This document shows positions 769 through 13,602 of a DNA stretch of 64,000 nt, piece by piece. The position numbers and the translations under genes are program-made. A model generated the notes under the pieces. It was not told where the DNA came from. It ran no database searches and saw only the letters and a list, made by a program, of their open reading frames with translations. The DNA comes from Bacteroidota bacterium (GTDB taxonomy: Bacteria; Bacteroidota; Bacteroidia; Chitinophagales; Chitinophagaceae), in NCBI GenBank assembly GCA_023433265.1, contig JAEZDR010000064.1, positions 65-64,064 on the forward strand, given 5' to 3'. Position 1 is the first letter of the stretch. Each line of letters opens with the position of its first letter.

Positions 769-1416
769 CTATTCAATAATCAATTTTTCAGTCTCTGTTC
801 TTCCATCCCTTGAAACAACCGTTACTAAATAAATGCCTCTGGGAAGTCTTGAAATGTCTATTTGTGCTAAGGCTGTTCCACCAAAAAGCTGGCTAACTTG
901 TCCTCTACCCAGAATATCAACTATAGTTACCTTTCTAATTCCACTGCCACTTATAAACACACTACTGCTAGCAGGATTAGGATAGATTTTTGTTATTCGA
1001 GCTTCCGTATTCTCATCAGAGGGTTTCTTAGGTTGTTTCAGCCTAGTAAATCCTTTGCTACTTTCAGACTCGCCTTCACACTTACCATCAAATTCGTTGA
1101 TTCTTTCAGTAAGTGCATTATAAAGATTGCGAACTGAATAAACCACACTGCCATAAACTTCCGGGCACTGATTAGCCAGCTCTCTGACCTCTTCCAGTTC
1201 AGGTCTATATTCTGGATCGTCGTGCATTTGGAGGAGCCAATCAAAATACTTCCTGAAGCTCTCATCCCCGCGTCCCCAGCCCTTGTCGTCTTTATTAAAG
1301 CTGGTATCCAGCATTCCAGCCTGGCCAAATGTTGTACTTGAAAAACACAAAGAGATGATAGTGTATAGGCATACTAGAACACTATGTTTCCCGGAAAGCT
1401 TAATAGCAGTTTCCAT
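769..1416 (-). CDS. Small secreted T9SS cargo protein (type A C-terminal sorting domain)
   Basis: The ORF spans 769..1485. The likely start is the internal ATG at 1416 (METAIKLSGKHSVLVCLYTIISLCFSSTTFGQ signal peptide). The C-terminus KIYPNPASSSVFISGSG...GIYLVTVVSRDGRTETEKLIIE matches the Por secretion tail pattern. The mature N-terminus AGMLDTSFN echoes the delta-60 genes next door. Confidence 0.6.
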   Translation of the reverse strand: METAIKLSGKHSVLVCLYTIISLCFSSTTFGQAGMLDTSFNKDDKGWGRGDESFRKYFDWLLQMHDDPEYRPELEEVRELANQCPEVYGSVVYSVRNLYNALTERINEFDGKCEGESESSKGFTRLKQPKKPSDENTEARITKIYPNPASSSVFISGSGIRKVTIVDILGRGQVSQLFGGTALAQIDISRLPRGIYLVTVVSRDGRTETEKLIIE

Positions 1417-1470
1417 AAACAGAGTTTGGTGTGGTAAACCTTGAAGGTACCGGTATGCCCGTTGTAAGAA

Positions 1471-1488
1471 TATGACAAAAGTCATTTA
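1471..1488. promoter_or_regulatory. Palindromic operator candidate TATGACAAAAGTCATTTA (core ATGAC-N4-GTCAT)
   Basis: It is a perfect 5+5 inverted repeat, 56-69 nt upstream of the probable start of the 769..1416 gene. It matches the copy at 1677..1694 at 17 of 18 positions. Confidence 0.45.
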
Positions 1489-1676
1489 TGAGTCAATCAA
1501 TGTAATCCACAAAGAGTGGCCTTTAATAAGACACTAAGCGTGCCGTATGATAAGTTGTCCTTTACCCTAGTAATACCGCCTAATAAAAATCCCGGGCTTT
1601 CACCAGGGGCTTCACTATCATAAAAGAGACTTACTCTCCCACAATCTCAAAGCTTTGACTAATTATGCTGTCCGTT

Positions 1677-1694
1677 TATGACGAAAGTCATTTA
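1677..1694. promoter_or_regulatory. Palindromic operator candidate TATGACGAAAGTCATTTA
   Basis: The core ATGACGAAAGTCAT (1678-1691) lies at -64..-51 from the ATG at 1742. It sits 22 nt upstream of the -7-like box TAGTTTCG (1714-1721). Confidence 0.45.
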
Positions 1695-1741
1695 ATGAAT
1701 GATGATCTGGAAATAGTTTCGTAGCACTTGAATTAAGTCGA

Positions 1742-4189
1742 ATGCAACTAACTGCCAAACGTTACCCAACTATCATTGCTGTTTTCGCAGTCATCTTTCT
1801 ATTGACAACATCAAAAACAGTTGCTCAGCCAGGTTTTTTAGATCCTACGTTCAATATCCAAGACAGCGTTGTTGCGAAAGGATTCGACAACCTTGTGAGA
1901 TGTTGCGTTAAACAACCAGATGGCAAATTGCTTGTTGGAGGATATTTCACCAACGTACACGGTGTTAAACGAACATGCATTGCCCGGCTTAATGCTGATG
2001 GGTCTTTAGACCATAGTTTCAAAGACGTTGAATTTAAGAATCCCGGGTACAACTATGGAGCATCAGGACAAATCTATTGTATCGCAATTCAAGCAGACGG
2101 TAAAATTGTTATCGGTGGCGCATTCGACTATGTAGCGGGTATGTTTAGGAAAAACATAGCTAGATTACTACCTAATGGTGATATTGATTCGTTTTTTAAT
2201 TCAGGAACTGGTTTCAACAAAACAGTACTCACTTTAGCTTGCCAGGCCGACGGAAAAATAATTGCCGGCGGAAGTTTTACTAGCTTCAATTCCTTTCCAG
2301 TAGGAAGGATTGCGCGGTTAAACACAGACGGTTCCCTTGAAATTCCTTTTAATACAGGTGTCGGTGCGAATAACAATGTGCAATCAATCTTAATTGACAG
2401 CATCGGACGAATTTATGTCACGGGATCCTTCAGTAACTTTAACAGCATAAGCACCGGAGTTGTTCGCCTATTATCCAATGGAGTGATTGATGGGTCTTAC
2501 AATGTCTCGGTATCAGGGCCTATTGCTTTCTCAGTGCTTAAGCCAACAGGAAAACTAATTTTAGCTGGGTCTGGTGTGCAAAGCGGTACAAAAAAGTACA
2601 TCATTCAACTTGATACAACTGGAGCTGTTGATGCATCTTTTACGTCTCCTGTAAATGTCTGGTCAAATATCTGGAATTTATTGGCCTTAAACGGCAACAA
2701 ATCAGCAGTACTCGGCTCTTTTCCTAAAAACATCATCGTTTTTAATGATAATGGAACAATAGATTCTGCTTTTAATGTGTTGGAAAGCTTTGATTTTTAC
2801 GACATAAAACGGCTACACACATCATGTGATTTAGGGGGAGGTAAACTTTTTGTTGCTGGTGATTTTTCAAGCTATGGAAACCGCAATGCTCAACAATTCG
2901 CTGTTTTTAATAACGACGGTAGCATAGATCAAGACTTTATAAGCCCTGCGTTTGGGCTGAACGAATCCAGTGATCAAGTCACTATCTCACTAGGTCAGCA
3001 AATTTTGGTGTCCGGAGAGTTTAACTTCTACAATCAAAGTAAAAGAAAGTTTTTTGCACGCCTACAACAGAATGGCGATGTTGACACTTTATTTAATTCT
3101 TCCACGGGGCCGAACGCGAAAGTGTCATCGTTAGCAGTCCAGCCCGATGGAAAAGTCATTATTGGAGGCAATTTCTCGCAGATTGATGGTAAAGCTGCAA
3201 AGAACATAGCAAGATTTTACAGCGACGGTTCGTTAGATTCAACGTTCAATCCAACAAATAACATCAGTACCAGTGTTTTCCGCATGGCGTTACAGCAGGA
3301 CGGCAAGATTATAATAGGTAATAACCTCAACGGCTTTATGCGACTTCTGCCAAATGGAAGTGTTGATGCATCCTTCAATTATACTGTTTCGGCTGGGTCT
3401 TCTCTGTATACACAAATAGGGATGCACCAAAATGGAAAGATTATCGTCGCAGGATATTTTTCGTCTTTAGGGGGTTCAACAAGACCTGGTATAGGACGGT
3501 TGAATGTAGACGGAAGTTTAGACAATACATTTAATCCGGTTATAAATGGAAACGCTGTAAGGTGTTTTGCTGTTCAGCCTAATAACAAAATCATCATTGG
3601 TGGCGAATTTACTTCTGTAGGGGGATTCCAACGAAACTCTGTAGCACGGCTCAATTGGGACGGAAGCAATGATTCAACCTTCAATTCAGTGTTTGCGTAT
3701 GGCACAACTATCAACTCAATTTTAGTTCAACCAACTGGTCACATTATCGTAGCTTATGGAAAAGTTGAAGGTGATAATTTTTTCCAAATAGTGCGACTTG
3801 ACAGCTCTGGCAATTACGATTATTCTTTCAACCCGGTAAAGTGCAACGGCACCATTATGCAGATGGCTCTTGACTCACACAGCATAATCGCGGTTGGACG
3901 ATTTTCTTCTATTAACAACACCGTCCGCAACAACATTGCGAAAATCCAGGCGCAGGTATATACCCCCAATTATACATTCAACGGCAATGGGAGTTGGAAT
4001 GATCCTGCTAACTGGCTAGGTGGCCAAATACCTACCAATCCCATTCCTGTAGGTACTGTCGTATTGGTGAATCCTTCAACAGGTGGTAGCTGCACCTTCA
4101 ACGGATCGCTAACTATAAGCTCGGGTGCCACGTTGCTCATCCCTCCAAATGTAAACTTCACCGTTAACGGAAACATTATTTACTTATAG
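1742..4189 (+). CDS. Delta-60-repeat beta-propeller surface protein, paralog 1 (815 aa)
   Basis: The ORF is complete and has a signal peptide (IIAVFAVIFLLTTSKTVAQ). It carries about 12 repeats of a roughly 58-aa unit with the DGKxxxGGxF...ARLxxDGSLDxxFN motif. It ends in the conserved ~75-aa tail YTFNGNGSW...NGNIIYL. Confidence 0.85.
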   Translation: MQLTAKRYPTIIAVFAVIFLLTTSKTVAQPGFLDPTFNIQDSVVAKGFDNLVRCCVKQPDGKLLVGGYFTNVHGVKRTCIARLNADGSLDHSFKDVEFKNPGYNYGASGQIYCIAIQADGKIVIGGAFDYVAGMFRKNIARLLPNGDIDSFFNSGTGFNKTVLTLACQADGKIIAGGSFTSFNSFPVGRIARLNTDGSLEIPFNTGVGANNNVQSILIDSIGRIYVTGSFSNFNSISTGVVRLLSNGVIDGSYNVSVSGPIAFSVLKPTGKLILAGSGVQSGTKKYIIQLDTTGAVDASFTSPVNVWSNIWNLLALNGNKSAVLGSFPKNIIVFNDNGTIDSAFNVLESFDFYDIKRLHTSCDLGGGKLFVAGDFSSYGNRNAQQFAVFNNDGSIDQDFISPAFGLNESSDQVTISLGQQILVSGEFNFYNQSKRKFFARLQQNGDVDTLFNSSTGPNAKVSSLAVQPDGKVIIGGNFSQIDGKAAKNIARFYSDGSLDSTFNPTNNISTSVFRMALQQDGKIIIGNNLNGFMRLLPNGSVDASFNYTVSAGSSLYTQIGMHQNGKIIVAGYFSSLGGSTRPGIGRLNVDGSLDNTFNPVINGNAVRCFAVQPNNKIIIGGEFTSVGGFQRNSVARLNWDGSNDSTFNSVFAYGTTINSILVQPTGHIIVAYGKVEGDNFFQIVRLDSSGNYDYSFNPVKCNGTIMQMALDSHSIIAVGRFSSINNTVRNNIAKIQAQVYTPNYTFNGNGSWNDPANWLGGQIPTNPIPVGTVVLVNPSTGGSCTFNGSLTISSGATLLIPPNVNFTVNGNIIYL

Positions 4190-4201
4190 TACAGTAACAA
4201 A

Positions 4202-4225
4202 AACCCCGGCGCGATGGCCGGGGTT
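4202..4225. terminator. Copy of the rplI terminator hairpin (AACCCCGGC-GCGAT-GCCGGGGTT)
   Basis: The stem-loop is identical to the one at 9511-9531. Further copies lie at about 4380-4401 (one mismatch) and at 6951-6974. The A-run on the plus strand means the T-run is on the minus strand, which is the rplI orientation. Confidence 0.7.
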
Positions 4226-4246
4226 CAGTATTCTCTGAGAGAAGGT

Positions 4247-4369
4247 TTATTCACCTACTACTTCAAACTCCATCTCAGTAACGTTGTTGTTACCAAAGTC
4301 GATGTTTGCTTTGTAAGTGCCTAGTTCTTTTACTTCGTCTACAATGCTTATACGCTTTCGGTTAATCTC
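4247..4369 (-). pseudogene. rplI: Relic of the 3' end of rplI (last 40 codons plus stop)
   Basis: The reverse translation is EINRKRISIVDEVKELGTYKANIDFGNNNVTEMEFEVVGE*. The genuine RplI C-terminus (9554-9676) reads EIDRKRISIVDEVKELGTYKANIDFGNNNVTEMEFEVVGE*. There are 9 nt differences in 123 nt. No upstream coding part is present. Confidence 0.9.
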
Positions 4370-4467
4370 TTAAACGAAAAACCCCGGCGCGATGGTCGGG
4401 GTCAGTATTCTCGGAAAGAAGGTTTATTCACCCACTACTTCAAACGCAGTTTAACTACAGAAAGCAG

Positions 4468-4481
4468 ATGATCAATATCAT
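4468..4481. promoter_or_regulatory. Palindromic operator candidate ATGATCAATATCAT
   Basis: It is a perfect palindrome at -65..-52 from the ATG at 4533. It sits 22 nt upstream of TAGCTTCG (4504-4511). Confidence 0.45.
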
Positions 4482-4532
4482 GTGTTCAGCGAAATATAGC
4501 AAATAGCTTCGTAACACCTGAAAATTTCAAAA

Positions 4533-6938
4533 ATGCTAGCTGCTAAACGTTTCCAAATTATTATACTTTTCACCACAGTTCTTTTTTTGGTTGGTATTGC
4601 TGTTGGTGCTCAACCAGGGTTTGTTGATCCAAGCTTCAATCTTCATGATACGATTTCTGCAAAAGGAACAAATGGATCAGCACGTTGTATTATCAAACAA
4701 CCTGACGGTAAAGTGATCGTAGGAGGTATGTTCTACATCGCAGATGGCGCAAAAAAATTTGGTCTTTTTCGGCTGAACACAGACGGTACGCTCGATGATG
4801 GCTTCAACGTTGATTTTCGGCAGAATAATAACAACTTTCATTACACGGTGTATTGCGGGGCAATTCAACCAGATGGCAAAATAGTCATTGGAGGCGCTTT
4901 TCAAAACATACATGGTTTCCCCCGTCAAAACATTGCGAGACTGCTAACGGATGGCAGTATTGACACATCCTTCGATCCCGGGGCAGTCTTCGGTAGTTAC
5001 GTGTCTGCTATTTCTATTCAACAAGATGGTAAAATAATTGCTGGAGGCTCTTTTAACCAGTTCAATTCTTCACCTGTTAATTATTTGGCTAGATTGAATA
5101 CCAATGGGTCATTAGACATCCTGTTTAGTGCAGGTGGAGGGTTTAATAACAGGGTTAATTCTGTTGCAACCGACGCTACGGGCAGAATTTACGTATCTGG
5201 AGAATTCAATAAATACAGGAGCGTCACTTGTAAAACGCTTGTAAGACTTCTTCCAACCGGCATATTGGATTCTACTTATACTCCGTCATTAGGCGGAGGC
5301 GCATTGTTGCTGCAACCTGACGGAAAGTTGTTGGCTGCTTCACTTGAAAGCAGTCTGCGCAGGTTCAATGAAGATGGGAGCGACGATATAACATTTTTAG
5401 CATCTCCAACCTCCAGTGGTAAAATCAACCACATATCATTTTTGCAAGGAGGCAAAATAGCAATAGCAGGTTCTTTCCTTGAAAAGGTGCTAGTGCTAAA
5501 TGTAAACGGCAACAAAGATGCAGCCTTCAATTTATCCGCGAGCTTCAACGGACCTGTTTTTGCCTGCTGTAGCTTTGGTGTCGACAAACTGCTTGTCGTC
5601 GGGGATTTCACGAGCTATGGCAATAAGAGTTACAGTAGAGTAGCAACAGTGGGTTATAATGGTGAAATCGACTCAACCTTCTCGAACAATGCGCGCGGCT
5701 TTAGCGAACAAGTAGTTACGGTAGCCTTGACTTCAGATAAACGACTGGTCGCAGCAGGAGACTTCAACTTTTATGATCAAAAACACGTGGGTTACCTTGC
5801 CAGATTACATGCTGATGGTCTGCCGGATTCAAGCTTTAATTCTATAATAGGAGCAGATGATCGGATAGCTGGGATAGCGTTACAGCCAGACGGCAAAATT
5901 TTGCTAGGTGGATCGTTCTCTAAATACAATGGAATAGATGCGAAAAATGTTTCGAGATTGTTCAATAACGGTTTAAACGATGGTAGTTTTAATCCGCCCA
6001 CTAATCTAGGTTCAAACATTAGAAGCATTGCAGTGCAGCCAGACGGTAAAATTCTCCTTCTGAGCGTAACGACCAAAGAAATTATACGGCTGCAACCGAA
6101 TGGTAGTATCGACGCTTCTTTCGCATTCCCTACATCACCCTCTAGCTACAAAGTTTTACTGCAGGCAGGGTTACAGCCCGATGGAAAAATTATCATTTGC
6201 GGGTCACTTAGTTCAATTGGAGGAATTACAAGAAGTGGGATCGCCAGACTAAACTCTAATGGCTCGTTAGATAACAGCTTCAATGTAACAGTACAAGGCG
6301 ACGAGGTTCGAAGTTTTCTACTGCGGCCTGATGGCAAAATATATATTCTAGGCAAATTTTCGTCAGTGAATGGAGTGGCTAGCAACGGCTTAGCACGACT
6401 TCACAGTGATGGAACCCTTGATACAACTTTTGAGGCCGCGTTAACGCCTGGCACTATTGTAAGTGCAGCCGTTTGGCACATGGGCTATCTATATTCTACT
6501 TCGTTACTAGATGGGGATCCGGATTATATCACAAAGCTTGTTCGTATGGACAGCACAGGAAATCTGGACTATACTTTCAACCTGGTTAAGATTACCGGCA
6601 TGGTATGGCAACTTTTACCAGACAGCGCACACCTATACGTGGCAGGAAGCTTTACCCGAGTCAATAATACAGTTCGCAACAACATCGCAAAGATTCAAGC
6701 GCAGGTTTACACGCCTAACTATACTTTCAACGGCACTGGCAGCTGGAGCAATTCTGCTAATTGGCTTGGCGGACAAATACCCCCTAATCCCGTTCCGGCA
6801 GGTAGTGTGGTATTGGTGAATCCTTCAACAGGTGGTAGCTGTACCTTCAATGGAGCGCTAACTATAAGCTCGGGTGCCACGTTACTCATCCCTCCAAACG
6901 TAAACTTCATCGTTAACGGAAACATCATTTACCTATAG
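4533..6938 (+). CDS. Delta-60-repeat beta-propeller surface protein, paralog 2 (801 aa)
   Basis: The ORF is complete, has a signal peptide and is collinear with paralog 1. It has the same C-terminal module. Confidence 0.85.
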   Translation: MLAAKRFQIIILFTTVLFLVGIAVGAQPGFVDPSFNLHDTISAKGTNGSARCIIKQPDGKVIVGGMFYIADGAKKFGLFRLNTDGTLDDGFNVDFRQNNNNFHYTVYCGAIQPDGKIVIGGAFQNIHGFPRQNIARLLTDGSIDTSFDPGAVFGSYVSAISIQQDGKIIAGGSFNQFNSSPVNYLARLNTNGSLDILFSAGGGFNNRVNSVATDATGRIYVSGEFNKYRSVTCKTLVRLLPTGILDSTYTPSLGGGALLLQPDGKLLAASLESSLRRFNEDGSDDITFLASPTSSGKINHISFLQGGKIAIAGSFLEKVLVLNVNGNKDAAFNLSASFNGPVFACCSFGVDKLLVVGDFTSYGNKSYSRVATVGYNGEIDSTFSNNARGFSEQVVTVALTSDKRLVAAGDFNFYDQKHVGYLARLHADGLPDSSFNSIIGADDRIAGIALQPDGKILLGGSFSKYNGIDAKNVSRLFNNGLNDGSFNPPTNLGSNIRSIAVQPDGKILLLSVTTKEIIRLQPNGSIDASFAFPTSPSSYKVLLQAGLQPDGKIIICGSLSSIGGITRSGIARLNSNGSLDNSFNVTVQGDEVRSFLLRPDGKIYILGKFSSVNGVASNGLARLHSDGTLDTTFEAALTPGTIVSAAVWHMGYLYSTSLLDGDPDYITKLVRMDSTGNLDYTFNLVKITGMVWQLLPDSAHLYVAGSFTRVNNTVRNNIAKIQAQVYTPNYTFNGTGSWSNSANWLGGQIPPNPVPAGSVVLVNPSTGGSCTFNGALTISSGATLLIPPNVNFIVNGNIIYL

Positions 6939-6950
6939 AAGAGTAACAAA

Positions 6951-6974
6951 AACCCCGGCGCGATGGCCGGGGTT
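6951..6974. terminator. Copy of the rplI terminator hairpin
   Basis: The sequence is AACCCCGGCGCGATGGCCGGGGTT. It is followed by a 20-nt rplI-end relic, ATTCACCTACTACTTCAAAC, at 6995-7014. Confidence 0.65.
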
Positions 6975-7035
6975 CAGTATTCTATGAGAGGAGGATTCAC
7001 CTACTACTTCAAACCTGTTTAACTACAGAAAGCCA

Positions 7036-7049
7036 ATGATCAATATCAT
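7036..7049. promoter_or_regulatory. Palindromic operator candidate ATGATCAATATCAT
   Basis: It is identical to the copy at 4468-4481 and lies at -65..-52 from the ATG at 7101. Confidence 0.45.
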
Positions 7050-7071
7050 GTCTTCAACCAAACACAGCAAA

Positions 7072-7079
7072 TAGCTTTG
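7072..7079 (+). promoter_or_regulatory. Bacteroidota -7 promoter box TAGCTTTG
   Basis: It is a perfect match to the TAnnTTTG consensus, 22 nt upstream of the ATG at 7101. Confidence 0.45.
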
Positions 7080-7100
7080 TAACAACCGAAACCCATAACC

Positions 7101-9497
7101 ATGCTAGTCGCCAACCGTTACAAAATTATTGGAGTTGTTACTGCAATATTCTTGATGCTGACCATTTCGGTTGCAGCTCAGCCGGGTTTGGTGGATGCAG
7201 CTTTTAACCTCAAAGATGTTGTGAAGCCTAAAGGCTTTAATGCTCCAGTTATGTGCAGTGTAACGCAACCTGATGGCAAGGTCTTACTCGGAGGTTTTTT
7301 CTTCATTGCGGATGGCACAAAGAAGCTTGGAATTGCAAGACTAAACATTGATGGCAGCTTAGATAATGGTTTCAACGTAGATTTTCGCCTACCGGAATAC
7401 TCTTCAACTGCATGGGCAGTTTACTCTATGGCTTTACAAGCTGATGGAAAGATTGTAATTGGTGGGCAATTCAGCAATATAGGTGGACTATCCAGGAATA
7501 ACATTGCGCGTTTGCTCCCAAATGGTGATGTTGACTCATCTTTCAATCCCGGGTCGGGATTCAACTCGACTCTCCTCACAGTTAAGTGCCAAAATGACGG
7601 CAAAGTAGTTGCCGGCGGCTTCTTTACCACCTTCAATTCCATTGCGGCGAGTGGATTAGTCCGGCTAAAACATGATGGCTCATTTGACGATACTTTTTCA
7701 ACTACCGGGTGGGGCTCAGGCTCAGTAAGAGCAATCGAAATTAGCACTGATGGTAAAATATATGTGGGAGGCTTCCAATTGAAAAGATTGCTTGCAAATG
7801 GTGAAGTTGATGCTTCTTTCACTTCAGGTTTTACTAAAAGTGTCCAGGCACTGCAACTTCAACAGGATGGTAAACTACTTGTAGGTAGTAACACAATAAG
7901 CGCCGGAACTAACAGTCTTGCCAGGCTAATGCCAGGCGGTAGCATTGACGGCTCTTTCAACCCACCGGTAATTGACGGCACCACCAACCATTTTCAGATC
8001 CTACCGGCAAACAAAATACTTGTCCTGGGATCTTTTGCAGAAAAAGCAATGATCTTAAATGACGACGGAAGTAAGGATGCTGCCTTTGCGATTGCCGCAA
8101 ACTCTACATATAACCAGAAGTTTTCAACTAGCAGCCTTTTTGGAGGTAAGCTACTACTAGCAGGTGACGTTACTTTTTACGCGTCATACGACACCAAAAG
8201 AATAGCGCTTTTTGACTTCAATGGCGTATTAGATTCAGTTTTCCTGAATCCTGCTCTTGGCATCAATCACGCCAGCAGCAACATTGTTGTTCAAACGGAT
8301 CAGAAGGTGCTTATTGCAGGACAGTTCAACTTCTATAACGGCAACCGCAGGAACTTCCTGGCCAGGCTTCATTCTAATGGTGAGCTTGATTCATCGTTTG
8401 CTCCAGGAACTGGTGCAGATTACTTTGTAAACGGTTGAGCACTTCAGCCCGACGGGAAGATTATCATCTCCGGTGCCTTTTCGAAGTATAATGGATTGGT
8501 GTCCAACCAAATTCAACGGTTAGATAGCAGCGGGCTCTTGGACGCAACGTTTAGTGCACCAACGGGGCTTGGCTCGGGAATAAACTGTATTGCTGTTCAA
8601 CCAGACGGAAAGATCGTAATAGCAACTGTGGACAATAAGAAAATTATACGGCTTATGCCGAATGGCAGCACTGACAACTCTTTTAATTCTCCCTCGTCAT
8701 CAAACTTTGTTAGCCTGGAAAGTCTCCAACTTCAACCGGACGGCAAGATAATAGTGGGTGGATCACTTACCAGTTTGGGAGGAGCGGCCAGGACCGGAAT
8801 CGGCCGCCTGAACACAGATGGCACCGTTGATAATGCGTTTAACCCAACGCTAAACGGCACTCATGTTAAAACATTTTGCATCAATGCTGATGGCAAAATT
8901 GTTATTGCGGGGCGCTTCTCTCAGGTAAACGGAGGGGGCAGAAACAGTATTGCGAGACTGAATAGCAATGGTAGCCTCGATACAACATTCAGCTCCCCTT
9001 TTTCTGAAGGCACCGCCATCTATGCAATGCTTCAGCAAACAGGCGGCAAATTGCTTGTCGTATATCAAGATCAAACTGTAGCCAATCTTTCCAGAATGAT
9101 TCGATTGAATACAGACGGCAAACCAGATTATACATTCACTCCTGTATTGTTTGACGGCATACCGCTGTCGCTTGCTTCAGATTCTACAAATGTTTATGCG
9201 ATAGGATCATTTTCCAGGGTCAACACTACTGTCCGCAACAACATCACAAAGATTCAAGCGCAGGTTTACACGCCTACCTATACTTTCAACGGCACTGGCA
9301 ATTGGAGCGATTCTGCTAATTGGCTTGGCGGACAAATACCACCTAATCCCGTTCCAGCAGGTAGTGTGGTATTGGTGAATCCTTCAACAGGTGGTAGCTG
9401 TACCTTCAATGGATCGCTAACAATAAGCCCGGGTGCCACGCTATTAATTCCTCCAAACGTAAACTTCACCGTTAACGGAAACATTATTTACTTATAG
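7101..9497 (+). pseudogene. Delta-60-repeat beta-propeller protein, paralog 3, interrupted by a single in-frame TGA at 8436-8438
   Basis: ORFs 7101..8438 and 8496..9497 are in the same frame. The translation reads ...GADYFVNG*ALQPDGKIIISGAFSKYNGL... and aligns across the stop with paralog 2 (...DRIAGIALQPDGKILLGGSFSKYNGI...). Read through, it would be 798 codons, compared with 801 and 815 aa for the paralogs. Only the first fragment has a signal peptide. Confidence 0.8.
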
Positions 9498-9510
9498 AAC
9501 AATAACAAAA

Positions 9511-9531
9511 ACCCCGGCGCGATGGCCGGGG
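9511..9531 (-). terminator. Intrinsic terminator of the rpsF-rpsR-rplI operon (also closes the convergent delta-60 gene)
   Basis: The hairpin is CCCCGGC-GCGAT-GCCGGGG. On the minus strand it is followed by TTTTTG, 20 nt after the rplI stop. Confidence 0.75.
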
Positions 9532-9553
9532 CTTCACTATCATAAAAGAGAAC

Positions 9554-10000
9554 TTACTCTCCTACCACTTCAAACTCCATCTCAGTAACGTTGTTGTTAC
9601 CAAAGTCGATGTTTGCTTTGTAAGTCCCTAGTTCTTTTACTTCGTCTACAATGCTGATGCGCTTGCGGTCGATCTCGTAACCTTTCTGGTCGCGGATAGC
9701 GCGGGCAATTTGAAGAGAGGTAACGCTACCGAAGATTTTACCGCTGGTACCTGTTTTAGCACCGATTTTAACGGGGCCTTCTTTGAGTACGCTGATAACG
9801 CTGTTGATCTCGGCCAGCATCTTAGCTTCTTTCTTTGCCTTTACTTTCTGGCGCTCTTCCAGTTGCTTTAGGTTGCCCGGATTAGCTTCTACCGCCATCT
9901 TCTTAGGAATAAGAAAGTTACGAGCGTAGCCATTCTTTACTGTTACCAGTTCGTTTGCTCCGCCCAGGTTATCTACATCCTGGATTAATATTACTTGCAT
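9554..10000 (-). CDS. rplI: 50S ribosomal protein L9
   Basis: The protein begins MQVILIQDVDNLGGANELVTVKNGYARNFLIPKKMA, a typical L9 N-terminus. The start was moved to the ATG at 10000, inside ORF 9554..10021. Confidence 0.9.
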   Translation of the reverse strand: MQVILIQDVDNLGGANELVTVKNGYARNFLIPKKMAVEANPGNLKQLEERQKVKAKKEAKMLAEINSVISVLKEGPVKIGAKTGTSGKIFGSVTSLQIARAIRDQKGYEIDRKRISIVDEVKELGTYKANIDFGNNNVTEMEFEVVGE

Positions 10001-10123: not shown

Positions 10124-10390
10124 CTATTTCAACAAATCGGTTACGTAAGGTAACAGAGCCATCTGGCGAGCTTTTTTAATTGCGTCGCTTACTTTGCGCT
10201 GGTACTTAAGGCTGTTACCGCTTAAACGGCGAGGTAAAATTTTACCCTGCTCGTTGATGAACTTTTTCAAAAACTCAACGTCTTTGTAGTCCACGTAACG
10301 GATGCCATACTTCTTAAAGCGGCAGAATTTCTTCTTAGGCTTCTCAGCTTTGATAGCTGTAAGGTATTTGATTTCATTTGGTTTTGCCAT
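10124..10390 (-). CDS. rpsR: 30S ribosomal protein S18
   Basis: The 88-aa protein contains [45 protein letters not shown], which is the S18 signature. Confidence 0.9.
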
Positions 10391-10394
10391 GATC

Positions 10395-10751
10395 TTAAAC
10401 CTCCGCTACTTTTTCGATTCCTGTTGGTACGCCACTTCTCTTTTTTGCATTGTACTCGACGGCGTATTTATCGAGCTTGGTGAACATGTGACGCATAACC
10501 TGCTCGTCACGGAGCATCTGTACCTTAAACTTCTCATTGAAGCCGGATGGCGCCGAGTACTCAAGAACCCAGTAGATACCTGTGGTTTTCTTTTGTACAG
10601 GGTAGGCCAGTGATTTTAGTCCCCAGGGGTTACTGTGCGTGATGCCACCACCGTGTTCGGTAATGTAATCAGTGTATTTCTTTTGAACGGCTTTGAACTC
10701 GTCCTCAGAAAGCACAGGGGTAAAAATCACCATCAATTCGTAATTGTTCAT
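10395..10751 (-). CDS. rpsF: 30S ribosomal protein S6
   Basis: The protein begins [19 protein letters not shown], a typical S6 N-terminus. It lies immediately upstream of rpsR. Confidence 0.9.
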
Positions 10752-11971: not shown

Positions 11972-12703
11972 TTAAGGGCGCTGCGTATTGCAGGATGTCT
12001 CAGACACTTGCTTCCTCCACTTTTTAAAAATCCGTAGTTCTTGGGGGGACAGCGTGTCTGCCACATGAATCACCCGCTCCGACGAAACATGCTGATCTGA
12101 CGGGGTTGGCAGGACATCATATCCCCATACGGGACAGGTTGCTGTTTCTTCGGATCCTTCAAATAGCTTCAATACATTTTTCTTTTGATCGCATCTTAAA
12201 TAAAATACGCTGTAAGCACCGCGAGGGTCTCCATTGGTTATTCTAATCCGCTTATAAACTATCCCTTCAATTGAAGTATCAGGCATTGGGTAGTATGGGT
12301 CTTTAAATATCTCTGGTTTTTTAAACGAAAACCAAACTAGTTCTTCGCCAACTTCATCAGCATGAAATGTCTTTATTAATGTGGTTGTATCGGAAAAACC
12401 AGAAAACTTGTAAAAACACAAAGTTCTTAGATCAAGCAAGTAAGAATTAGAAGGAACAGCTTTCAAACTGGTACTGTCGTGACCAAGATAAAAATTTTCT
12501 TCAACTAATGTACTATGGTTTTGAATGACAAAGCTATCCTGAGATAATGCAACAACCGTTACCGGCAGAGGCTTGTAAACCTTTTTCACAGGATCATAAA
12601 CAGACCTCTGGTATAGTACCTTGCCACAGTAGCTTTTGCCCTTTGTGGGTTCACAACCCACCAACAAGGAAAAGAATAGAATGATGGCCAAAAGCTTAAG
12701 CAT
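11972..12703 (-). CDS. Lipoprotein of unknown function, paralog A (243 aa)
   Basis: It has a signal peptide and lipobox (LLVGCEP). It is collinear with the 12868..13602 product, sharing DSFVIQN, PSNSY.(L/I)DLR..CF(Y/F)K(F/Y)S.FSDT.TL, FYLRCD, CP(V/I)W and W(R)KQ. Confidence 0.7.
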   Translation of the reverse strand: MLKLLAIILFFSLLVGCEPTKGKSYCGKVLYQRSVYDPVKKVYKPLPVTVVALSQDSFVIQNHSTLVEENFYLGHDSTSLKAVPSNSYLLDLRTLCFYKFSGFSDTTTLIKTFHADEVGEELVWFSFKKPEIFKDPYYPMPDTSIEGIVYKRIRITNGDPRGAYSVFYLRCDQKKNVLKLFEGSEETATCPVWGYDVLPTPSDQHVSSERVIHVADTLSPQELRIFKKWRKQVSETSCNTQRP

Positions 12704-12867: not shown

Positions 12868-13602
12868 TTATAGACAAGATATTTTTGCAATCTGCTTTCT
12901 CCATGTTGCAAAGATATTTTGTTCATGTTGCGAAAGAGAGTCCGCCATATGGATAAGTTGGATTGAAGGAACTGGCTTTTCCAGCTTTGCAGGCAGGTAA
13001 TCTCTTCGCCATATAGGGCAATCAAAAGTTGTAAGTGAACTAGCATACAACCCAAACATGCTACCTTTCATATCGCAGCGCAAATAAAAAATGCTTTCAG
13101 ATGTATTTGAACCTTCTGCTTTTTCTGTTGCTTTTATCCTTCTATATGACACGCCTAGGATAACAGTATCGGATAGAACATTGAGCTTTCCGATAGTCGA
13201 ATCAATTGAATTATTAAAAAAGGGCACCCAAACACCTTCAGCTTCTGCTTTAGAAATGGTGAAATCTCCCAACAAAGTGGCGGTATCGGAAAAGCTAGAA
13301 TACTTGAAAAAGCACATTGATCTTAAATCAATAATATACGAGTTTGAAGGAATTGCTGTCATTATGGTGCTATCTTTAAAATAGGAGACAATTTTTAGAA
13401 CTTGAGTATTTTGAATAACAAAACTGTCCTGATACAAGATTTCTAGAAATACAGGAATAGGCACATAATCTTTTTTAGTTATGTCATACCAACTTACTTG
13501 TGCCCGAATTTTCCCACAATTCACGGTCCTAGAGGAAGTGCAAGCCATAGGGCAGAGGACGATAAATACTAACAATGAAATTACTAAAGTTTGTTTGAAC
13601 AT
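12868..13602 (-). CDS. Lipoprotein of unknown function, paralog B (244 aa)
   Basis: It has a signal peptide (LLVFIVLCPMAC) and is a tandem paralog of 11972..12703. Confidence 0.7.
   Translation of the reverse strand: MFKQTLVISLLVFIVLCPMACTSSRTVNCGKIRAQVSWYDITKKDYVPIPVFLEILYQDSFVIQNTQVLKIVSYFKDSTIMTAIPSNSYIIDLRSMCFFKYSSFSDTATLLGDFTISKAEAEGVWVPFFNNSIDSTIGKLNVLSDTVILGVSYRRIKATEKAEGSNTSESIFYLRCDMKGSMFGLYASSLTTFDCPIWRRDYLPAKLEKPVPSIQLIHMADSLSQHEQNIFATWRKQIAKISCL

Follow-up and report, generated by a model that had tools for sequence, protein, structure and literature searches.

Genes of the delta-60 array at the rplI locus

The stretch of DNA analyzed here, hereafter the window, is 64 kb in length and comes from metagenome-derived contigs; all coordinates given below are window positions. 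The bacterium it belongs to falls in the Chitinophagaceae and is itself unsampled; its RplI reached a best identity of approximately 91-92% in a database of 5.8 billion proteins, and 80-88% against the representatives of the Genome Taxonomy Database (GTDB). The subject of this study is a tandem array of three delta-60 repeat genes situated at the 3' end of rplI, and the copies of the rplI terminator and fragments of the rplI coding end, or relics, that are found at the joints of this array. The live rplI gene (9554-10000, minus strand) encodes ribosomal protein bL9 of 148 amino acids (aa) and is the final gene of the rpsF-rpsR-rplI operon (rpsR, 10124-10390; rpsF, 10395-10751). The delta-60 genes are on the plus strand, i.e., convergent with this operon, and lie at 1742-4189 (gene 1, 815 aa), 4533-6938 (gene 2, 801 aa) and 7101-9497 (gene 3, 798 codons with one in-frame TGA at 8436-8438).

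All three encoded proteins had signal peptides and a beta-propeller, matched the PF17164 profile with E values of 1e-52 to 1e-110, and scored 119-240 bits with TIGR02608, for which the cutoff is 76.5; by these profiles, they are members of the delta-60 repeat / DUF5122 family. The paralogs were mutually 47-50% identical, as opposed to at most 39% identity with any other protein in a full-length search of the 5.8-billion-protein database, which shows that the three genes form one lineage-specific family. The TGA of gene 3 occurs in the context ...FVNG*ALQPDGK, beyond which the frame runs on to a full-length paralog, and it was the same in both contigs that cover the site; gene 3 is either a recent pseudogene or the carrier of a real nonsense polymorphism.

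The regions upstream of the three genes (1652-1741, 4446-4532 and 7015-7100 in units 1, 2 and 3, respectively; all plus strand) align with one another from the final base of the rplI relic onward. Each carries a palindrome of the form ATGA-N6-TCAT (ATGACGAAAGTCAT at 1678-1691 in unit 1; ATGATCAATATCAT at 4468-4481 in unit 2 and at 7036-7049 in unit 3) and, 22-23 nucleotides (nt) downstream of it, a box of the form TAG[C/T]TT[C/T]G (TAGTTTCG at 1714-1721, TAGCTTCG at 4504-4511 and TAGCTTTG at 7072-7079). The -7 promoter consensus of Bacteroidota is TAnnTTTG, and from their fit to it we take these boxes to be putative -7 promoter elements. The palindrome, by its sequence and regular placement, may be a candidate operator for a common regulator.

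At their other end, the three genes share a conserved 3' module of approximately 85 codons (gene 1, 3914-4189; gene 2, 6663-6938; gene 3, 9222-9497; plus strand), in which the aligned nucleotide identity is 80-95%. The corresponding C-terminal module of about 85 aa reads …YTFNGTGSWS..ANWLGGQIP…VLVNPSTGGSCTFNG…IIYL. It has no match in Pfam or NCBIfam and is not a sorting domain of the type IX secretion system (T9SS). A protein search with a 100-aa query of this module returned no matches and also missed the window's own proteins, the index apparently overlooking short fragments. Conserved open reading frames (ORFs) of 68-69 aa run antisense within the same stretch and are probably a by-product of the conservation of the module.

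Copies of the rplI terminator and of the rplI coding end at the joints

The original prediction for this DNA had proposed that a hairpin, followed by pieces of the rplI 3' end, occurs after every delta-60 copy, and this was indeed found, with the hairpin coordinates shifted by about 3 nt. In a search of the 64-kb window, the 25-mer AAAAACCCCGGCGCGATGGCCGGGG was located in three exact copies, namely at 4199-4223 (joint J1), 6948-6972 (J2) and 9507-9531 (J3, the live end of rplI), and in a fourth copy with one mismatch, which falls in the stem, at 4377-4401 (J1', 178 nt past the J1 hairpin); there were no further near matches. On the minus strand, each copy forms a G+C-rich stem-loop, followed by a T-run. 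The three exact copies were picked by the terminator scan, and stretches of 64-66 nt that contain them gave folding energies of -20 to -25 kcal/mol (z of about -3.6 to -4.3), as compared to -16 kcal/mol for the stretch with the mismatched J1' hairpin. The live hairpin begins 22 nt past the rplI stop codon; for this terminator, the stem has 7-11 pairs and the energies are -22 to -25 kcal/mol. Since each of approximately 75 relatives has its own, differing terminator 20-45 nt past the rplI stop, the identity of the hairpin as the predicted Rho-independent terminator of rplI is secure. The same 25-mer was also found in 54 exact matches in the metagenomes of the Joint Genome Institute (JGI), in unrelated, mostly G+C-rich contexts and usually with a T-run after it; none of these 54 stretches had rplI or delta-60 homology. 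Judged by such contexts, AAAAACCCCGGCGCGATGGCCGGGG (including its 6-nt loop) is a recurrent terminator sequence of distant bacteria, and not a marker of related loci.

Beyond each hairpin, a short spacer leads to the rplI end, live or relic, that was recognized by alignment. The live spacer, between the rplI stop and its terminator (9532-9553, minus strand), defines what we call the R (resident) type. The spacers at J1 (4224-4246), J1' (4402-4423) and J2 (6973-6994) are of a second type, F, and are followed on the minus strand by relics of 123 nt (4247-4369; 41 codons including the stop), 22 nt (4424-4445, reading FEVVGE*) and 20 nt (6995-7014, with the stop codon partly deleted), respectively. 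Comparison of the 123-nt relic to the corresponding part of the live gene (9554-9676) revealed 92.7% identity with nine differences, of which eight are synonymous third codon positions and one is a first-position change, D to N; in other words, only one of the 82 first and second codon positions is altered. The J1 spacer, on the other hand, differs from the live one at 6 of 20 aligned positions in the alignment of the original prediction and has additional changes beside the stop, which amount to a difference of about 30% overall. The counts previously given for relic and spacer were thus reproduced. Two F-type relics have a single mutual difference, also at a third position, and all four relic versions in the array still read FE[V/I]VGE*. 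The possibility that the 123-nt relic is itself a coding ORF was rejected, as it has an in-frame TAA directly upstream; the only in-frame start codon of a standard type, an ATG, precedes the stop by nine codons.

The leftmost joint, J0, is of a different makeup. Its hairpin is degenerate (AAAAATCCCGGGCTTTCACCAGGGG; 1585-1609, minus strand): 10 of 11 positions of the 5' half match the rplI hairpin and the following 10 nt are unrelated. There is a weak, 5-pair terminator-like site at 1607-1591, and the fold is not significant (z -0.68). Next to it lies a core of resident-type spacer, stop and first codons of the rplI end (1606-1639), which agrees with the live 9528-9562 at 34 of 35 positions, the exception being a single 1-nt indel; the 24-mer GGGGCTTCACTATCATAAAAGAGA had two matches in the window, against none expected from 100 shuffles. 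The rplI relic of J0 is 21 nt long (1631-1651, minus strand), reads FEIVGE*, and has four differences from live rplI, three of them at third positions. The 35-nt core is placed between a hairpin with an unrelated 3' half and a relic with four changes in 12 nt. Together, the degenerate hairpin, the spacer and the 21-nt relic make J0 a fourth, partial unit that survives at the left edge of the array. Immediately to the left of its hairpin (1560-1590), the sequence ctttaccctagtaataccgcctaat is similar to that around the final codons and stop of the delta-60 genes (atttacttatagaacaataac), a similarity which suggests that a unit 0 was lost here and that its 3' end has decayed. In summary, resident-type sequence brackets the array, as was originally claimed, in the form of direct repeats (1606-1639 and 9528-9562) that include the 3' end of the target gene rplI, and nothing but delta-60 genes is found between them. 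The 21-nt relic and the degenerate hairpin of J0, as well as the clustering of the nine relic differences described below, are additions to the earlier account.

Codon positions of the relic differences

In contrast to most non-coding junctions, the rplI relics could be read against a reading frame, which allowed a quantitative comparison with decay in place. In the in-situ model, decay of a neutral relic, at all codon positions, and synonymous drift of the live gene run over the same length of time; with 24 synonymous sites in the 40 codons, 44% of the differences are then expected at third positions. The observed proportion was 8 of 9 in the 123-nt relic (P = 0.008) and 12 of 14 when all relics were pooled (P = 0.0017). 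This excess of third-position differences indicates that the relics stem from rplI ends that were functional and evolved separately, and agrees with the original view of them as ends of working alleles rather than as products of decay in situ.

It is on these numbers that the main rival explanation has to be judged, namely that the entire history took place in a single lineage, by tandem duplications, neutral decay of the relics and intragenomic conversion, the synonymous bias being an accident of a small sample. Much of the evidence is in line with it: the shared joint and the mutual closest relatedness of the units fit growth in situ, patches of conversion are evident, and a donor lineage was not found in the collections searched. 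It fails only on the codon positions, where the two proportions above stand against the expected 44%, and where spacers that differ by about 30% accompany relics with only one changed first or second position in 82. We consider this explanation unlikely, though it deserves to be taken seriously.

Codon-aware divergence without a second lineage could also result if rplI, or its operon, had been present in two functional copies that arose by segmental duplication and diverged under purifying selection, until one of them was truncated to the 123-nt relic. Duplicated ribosomal-protein operons, however, are normally homogenised or lost fast. The window has no trace of a second rpsR, rpsF or rplI body, the 123 nt standing alone and abutting another hairpin, and the 22-nt relics share the bias even though they would never have been part of a complete gene under such a model. 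A second functional copy is, on these grounds, highly improbable.

The differences in the 123-nt relic are also unevenly spread. In the sense of rplI, five are located in the first 21 nt, one in the central 89 nt and three in the last 14 nt (maximum-gap P = 0.017; Fisher P = 2e-4 for ends versus centre, with a post hoc partition). Constraint at the nucleotide level was tried as a reason for the near-identical centre and rejected, since third positions in that part vary freely among 70 relatives; for the same reason, the centre seems to owe its near-identity to recent conversion between the live gene and the relic. Polarising the nine sites with distant outgroups assigned derived states to the live allele at about five of them and to the relic at 3-4, with outgroups that are too saturated to be trusted.

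Growth of the array and recombination at its joints

Two very different ages are evident within each unit. The gene bodies are at synonymous saturation, with a proportion of synonymous differences (pS) of approximately 0.8 and of nonsynonymous differences (pN) of approximately 0.38, as opposed to the last 60-80 codons, where pS is 0.09-0.4 and pN is 0.02-0.06. Nucleotide identity accordingly climbs from about 0.5 to 0.90-0.95 toward each hairpin and, in units 2 and 3, the young block does not end at the joint, the upstream region beyond it being 74-85% identical. Over the time in which the bodies diverged, non-coding relics would have become unrecognizable, and the junction blocks must therefore have been homogenised repeatedly. 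Furthermore, the same joint between relic and upstream region is found in all three units, which points to one ancestral tandem duplication that ended 22 nt inside rplI.

Overall, we regard as the probable reading a lineage-specific array of three old delta-60 paralogs, the joints of which have been recombining, with at least one exchange between lineages. In this history, the first event was a single tandem duplication with its endpoint 22 nt within rplI, and the repeated unit consists of the 22-nt rplI relic, promoter region, gene, rplI terminator and spacer; later duplications of the unit copied the joint along with it. While the bodies became saturated, recombination by gene conversion or unequal crossover continued in a block spanning the joint, which comprises the hairpin, spacer and relic together with the last ~250 nt of the gene and, in units 2 and 3, extends to the upstream region; the homology is provided by a selected C-terminal module and the terminator. 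On at least one occasion, to judge from the codon-position statistics, the partner would have come from a separate lineage in which rplI had diverged while its end remained functional, presumably by homologous recombination with a close, unsampled relative of the same locus organization. The patchy identity suggests that short intragenomic conversion tracts are now erasing the difference between the alleles, the likely patches being the 35-nt core of resident type in J0 and, in the 123-nt relic, the near-identical 89 nt at its centre. In this reading, no dedicated recombinase takes part. The 123-nt relic and second hairpin were originally seen as a sign that a further copy was lost at 4202-4445; loss of one unit is possible, and a 178-nt tandem duplication of terminator and gene end would explain the same structure.

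The direction of the exchange can be envisaged in two ways, in that the incoming DNA may have become the inner part of the array or taken the place of the live rplI end. The order R-F-R is explained most simply if a double crossover in homologous array sequence brought the F-type inner joints J1, J1' and J2 into a genome of R type. If instead the live rplI end was replaced by the R allele and J0 received a conversion patch, the fit is about as good; hence, the foreign allele may be either of the two, and the original designation of the inner allele as foreign could not be upheld. The proposal that cassettes were imported or exchanged stands in part: exchange with a diverged rplI allele is supported, and recombination at the block of conserved gene end and terminator is evident from the mosaic identity. 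Independent import of the cassettes is not supported, since their mutual closest relatedness and single shared joint mean that the array grew by duplication of units in this lineage or a close relative.

Several observations weigh against this reading. The step between lineages depends on just 14 variable sites, and the clustering tests were defined only after the data had been viewed. A second lineage with either allele was not found among 80 GTDB genomes of the family and the closest RplI relatives (87-92% identity). The original suggestion that comparison of rplI ends would identify a donor was not confirmed, as the relic is closer to the resident gene (92.7%) than to the rplI end of any relative in the loci fetched (at most 83%). 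All available contigs that span the array, retrieved by exact-protein look-ups with RplI and the left-flank protein, were 100% identical and so give no population evidence. Lastly, the J0 core, matching at 34 of 35 positions and bounded by poorly matching sequence, is awkward for conversion of the RecA type and fits a site-specific crossover as well.

The last point raises the possibility of an attachment site at the rplI 3' end, into which a site-specific recombinase, with its gene elsewhere, inserted single units or the whole 7.9-kb array, with J0 and J3 as attL and attR. The near-perfect core at both array ends with its dissimilar flanks would be expected of such a site; alternative gene ends that differ synonymously are known from the e14 prophage in icd (PMC6379469), and the array was found in none of the relatives examined. 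Nevertheless, the array itself, 4 kb on its left side and 35 kb on its right side, which together take in the first 45 kb of the window, contained no recognizable integrase, transposase or other mobility gene; the cargo consists of three mutually closest paralogs with one duplication joint, and the hairpin is an ordinary terminator, the 25-mer of which recurs in the unrelated metagenomic contexts mentioned above. Insertion of this kind is thus very unlikely. We attach the same low credence to the broader notion that the block of hairpin, spacer and rplI end is a functional recombination site that captures and releases promoter-bearing delta-60 cassettes, or the whole array. If it were true, a ribosomal protein gene would here anchor an integron-like cassette platform that is not linked to an integrase, its recombinase being encoded at a distance, with the 35-nt core as the crossover site.

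The metagenomic origin of the contigs also makes it conceivable that reads of two co-existing strains were threaded through the repeated 3' module and hairpin by the assembler, the more so because one of the assemblies is interrupted precisely within this module, where its contigs end at 6874 and 6935. Against such an artefact, two assemblies from different analyses in the European Nucleotide Archive (ENA), with different contig styles, are 100% identical to the window over J0, J1 and J1' (contig L144) and over J2 and J3 (contigs L001 and L002). Moreover, the 123-nt relic ends at a joint without any long shared k-mer, which a chimera of strains would not produce. Of the explanations considered, this one is the least probable.

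Comparison with relatives and with known systems

The original prediction had looked to synteny at the rplI locus for copy number and cassette content in relatives; among the genomes and closest RplI relatives specified above, no array and no delta-60 gene was found beside rplI. The gene downstream of rplI varies even among the closest relatives, being a DAHP synthase gene in one group and a GCS2-family gene in another.

Among known systems, tandem arrays under concerted evolution offered the closest parallel, in that the genes are adjacent mutual closest relatives on the same strand, share one joint, and combine saturated bodies with young, low-pS 3' ends and joints. They differ from the present case in that the unit here reaches into an essential neighbour, and that the joints retain a terminator and readable rplI codons, which constitute an internal record of past rplI alleles. 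The locus fits best among the tandem paralog arrays that evolve in concert, its peculiarity being that an essential neighbouring gene happens to contribute its end to the unit. Of the hallmarks of recombination between lineages, differences that respect the reading frame were found and a donor lineage, in the collections searched, was not.

The e14 prophage, which resides in the icd gene of Escherichia coli, supplies an alternative end for that gene and leaves behind a 163-bp pseudo-icd' (PMC6379469). Like e14 and the islands with repeats of tRNA 3' ends, the rplI array has a truncated second 3' end beyond the inserted DNA, differences that preserve the protein, and direct repeats at its borders. 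Unlike them, it has no integrase, phage or island genes, and no recombinase inside or beside the element, in the 45 kb examined; its cargo is a duplicated chromosomal gene family, and relics are present at the internal joints too.

Sequential displacement arrays, i.e., those of orphan immunity genes and of the 3' ends of Rhs and contact-dependent inhibition (CDI) loci, are built by homologous and homology-facilitated illegitimate recombination; in these and in type VI secretion system (T6SS) loci, a conserved gene anchors the recombination and displaced ends pile up downstream, horizontal exchange among related strains having been proposed (PMC5361080). The likeness to the rplI locus lies in the conserved gene that serves as homology anchor and in displaced 3' fragments that are interleaved with cassettes downstream. 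In the rplI array, by contrast, the cassettes converge with their anchor and have no functional relation to it, a single joint is common to three of the four relics, which are thus copies of one event, and donor strains are not at hand. Neither independent joints nor cassettes tied to the anchor gene, as sequential displacement would produce, were observed.

Integrons likewise alternate genes with a repeated, hairpin-forming element beside a fixed chromosomal point. In this array, however, the hairpin has a perfect 7-bp terminator stem and is not an attC site, the cassettes are paralogs with their own predicted promoters, and no IntI was found in the 45 kb examined; the combination of intI and attI with attC sites carrying R and L boxes that defines an integron is therefore lacking.

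Genes flanking the array

To the left, beyond the array and transcribed away from it, lies a gene for a 238-aa protein with a T9SS C-terminal sorting domain (769-1485, minus strand; Por_Secre_tail / TIGR04183 matches). After its signal peptide, this protein begins with GMLDTSFN (within 1300-1420, minus strand), which is similar to the delta-60 motif G.LD.SFN, and it has no DUF5122 match. The neighbours of the array in general include T9SS proteins, ribosomal proteins, DUF4197, a helix-turn-helix (HTH) protein and housekeeping genes. A second pair of tandem paralogs, encoding proteins of 243 and 244 aa with lipoprotein-like N-termini and no Pfam family, is situated at 11972-12703 and 12868-13602 (minus strand), and the gene next to it encodes a 349-aa protein that is likewise without a family. 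Scans for tRNA genes in the left flank and the first 45 kb of the window, and for Rfam families, gave no matches.

Just left of the window start is a tandem pair of T9SS-sorted paralogs of 501 aa each (contig L143, 10725-13742). Their 5' parts are 72% identical and the last 500 nt are 99% identical, which is, as far as the sequences tell, the same pattern of 3'-end homogenisation as in the delta-60 array. The second assembly has a single hybrid gene in their stead (contig L144, 6114-7616), with the 5' part of copy A, the 3' part of copy B and a crossover inside those 500 nt; this reflects either unequal crossover or deletion in the population, or a repeat that was collapsed in assembly.

Implications of the readable joints

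The array is an ordinary product of duplication and recombination, in which known processes have left an unusually legible trace, and it is not a new molecular system; its relics suggest past exchange with a related lineage. Because the duplication happened to end inside an essential gene on which purifying selection is strong, each codon of the junction relics can be interpreted. It is this property that separates decay in place from the copying of a working gene, a distinction that is rarely possible for non-coding junctions. Should genomes of sister lineages become available, the relics could date the order and direction of the conversion and import events. The locus thus constitutes a compact natural record of how tandem families of surface or secreted protein genes grow and are reshuffled in Bacteroidota.

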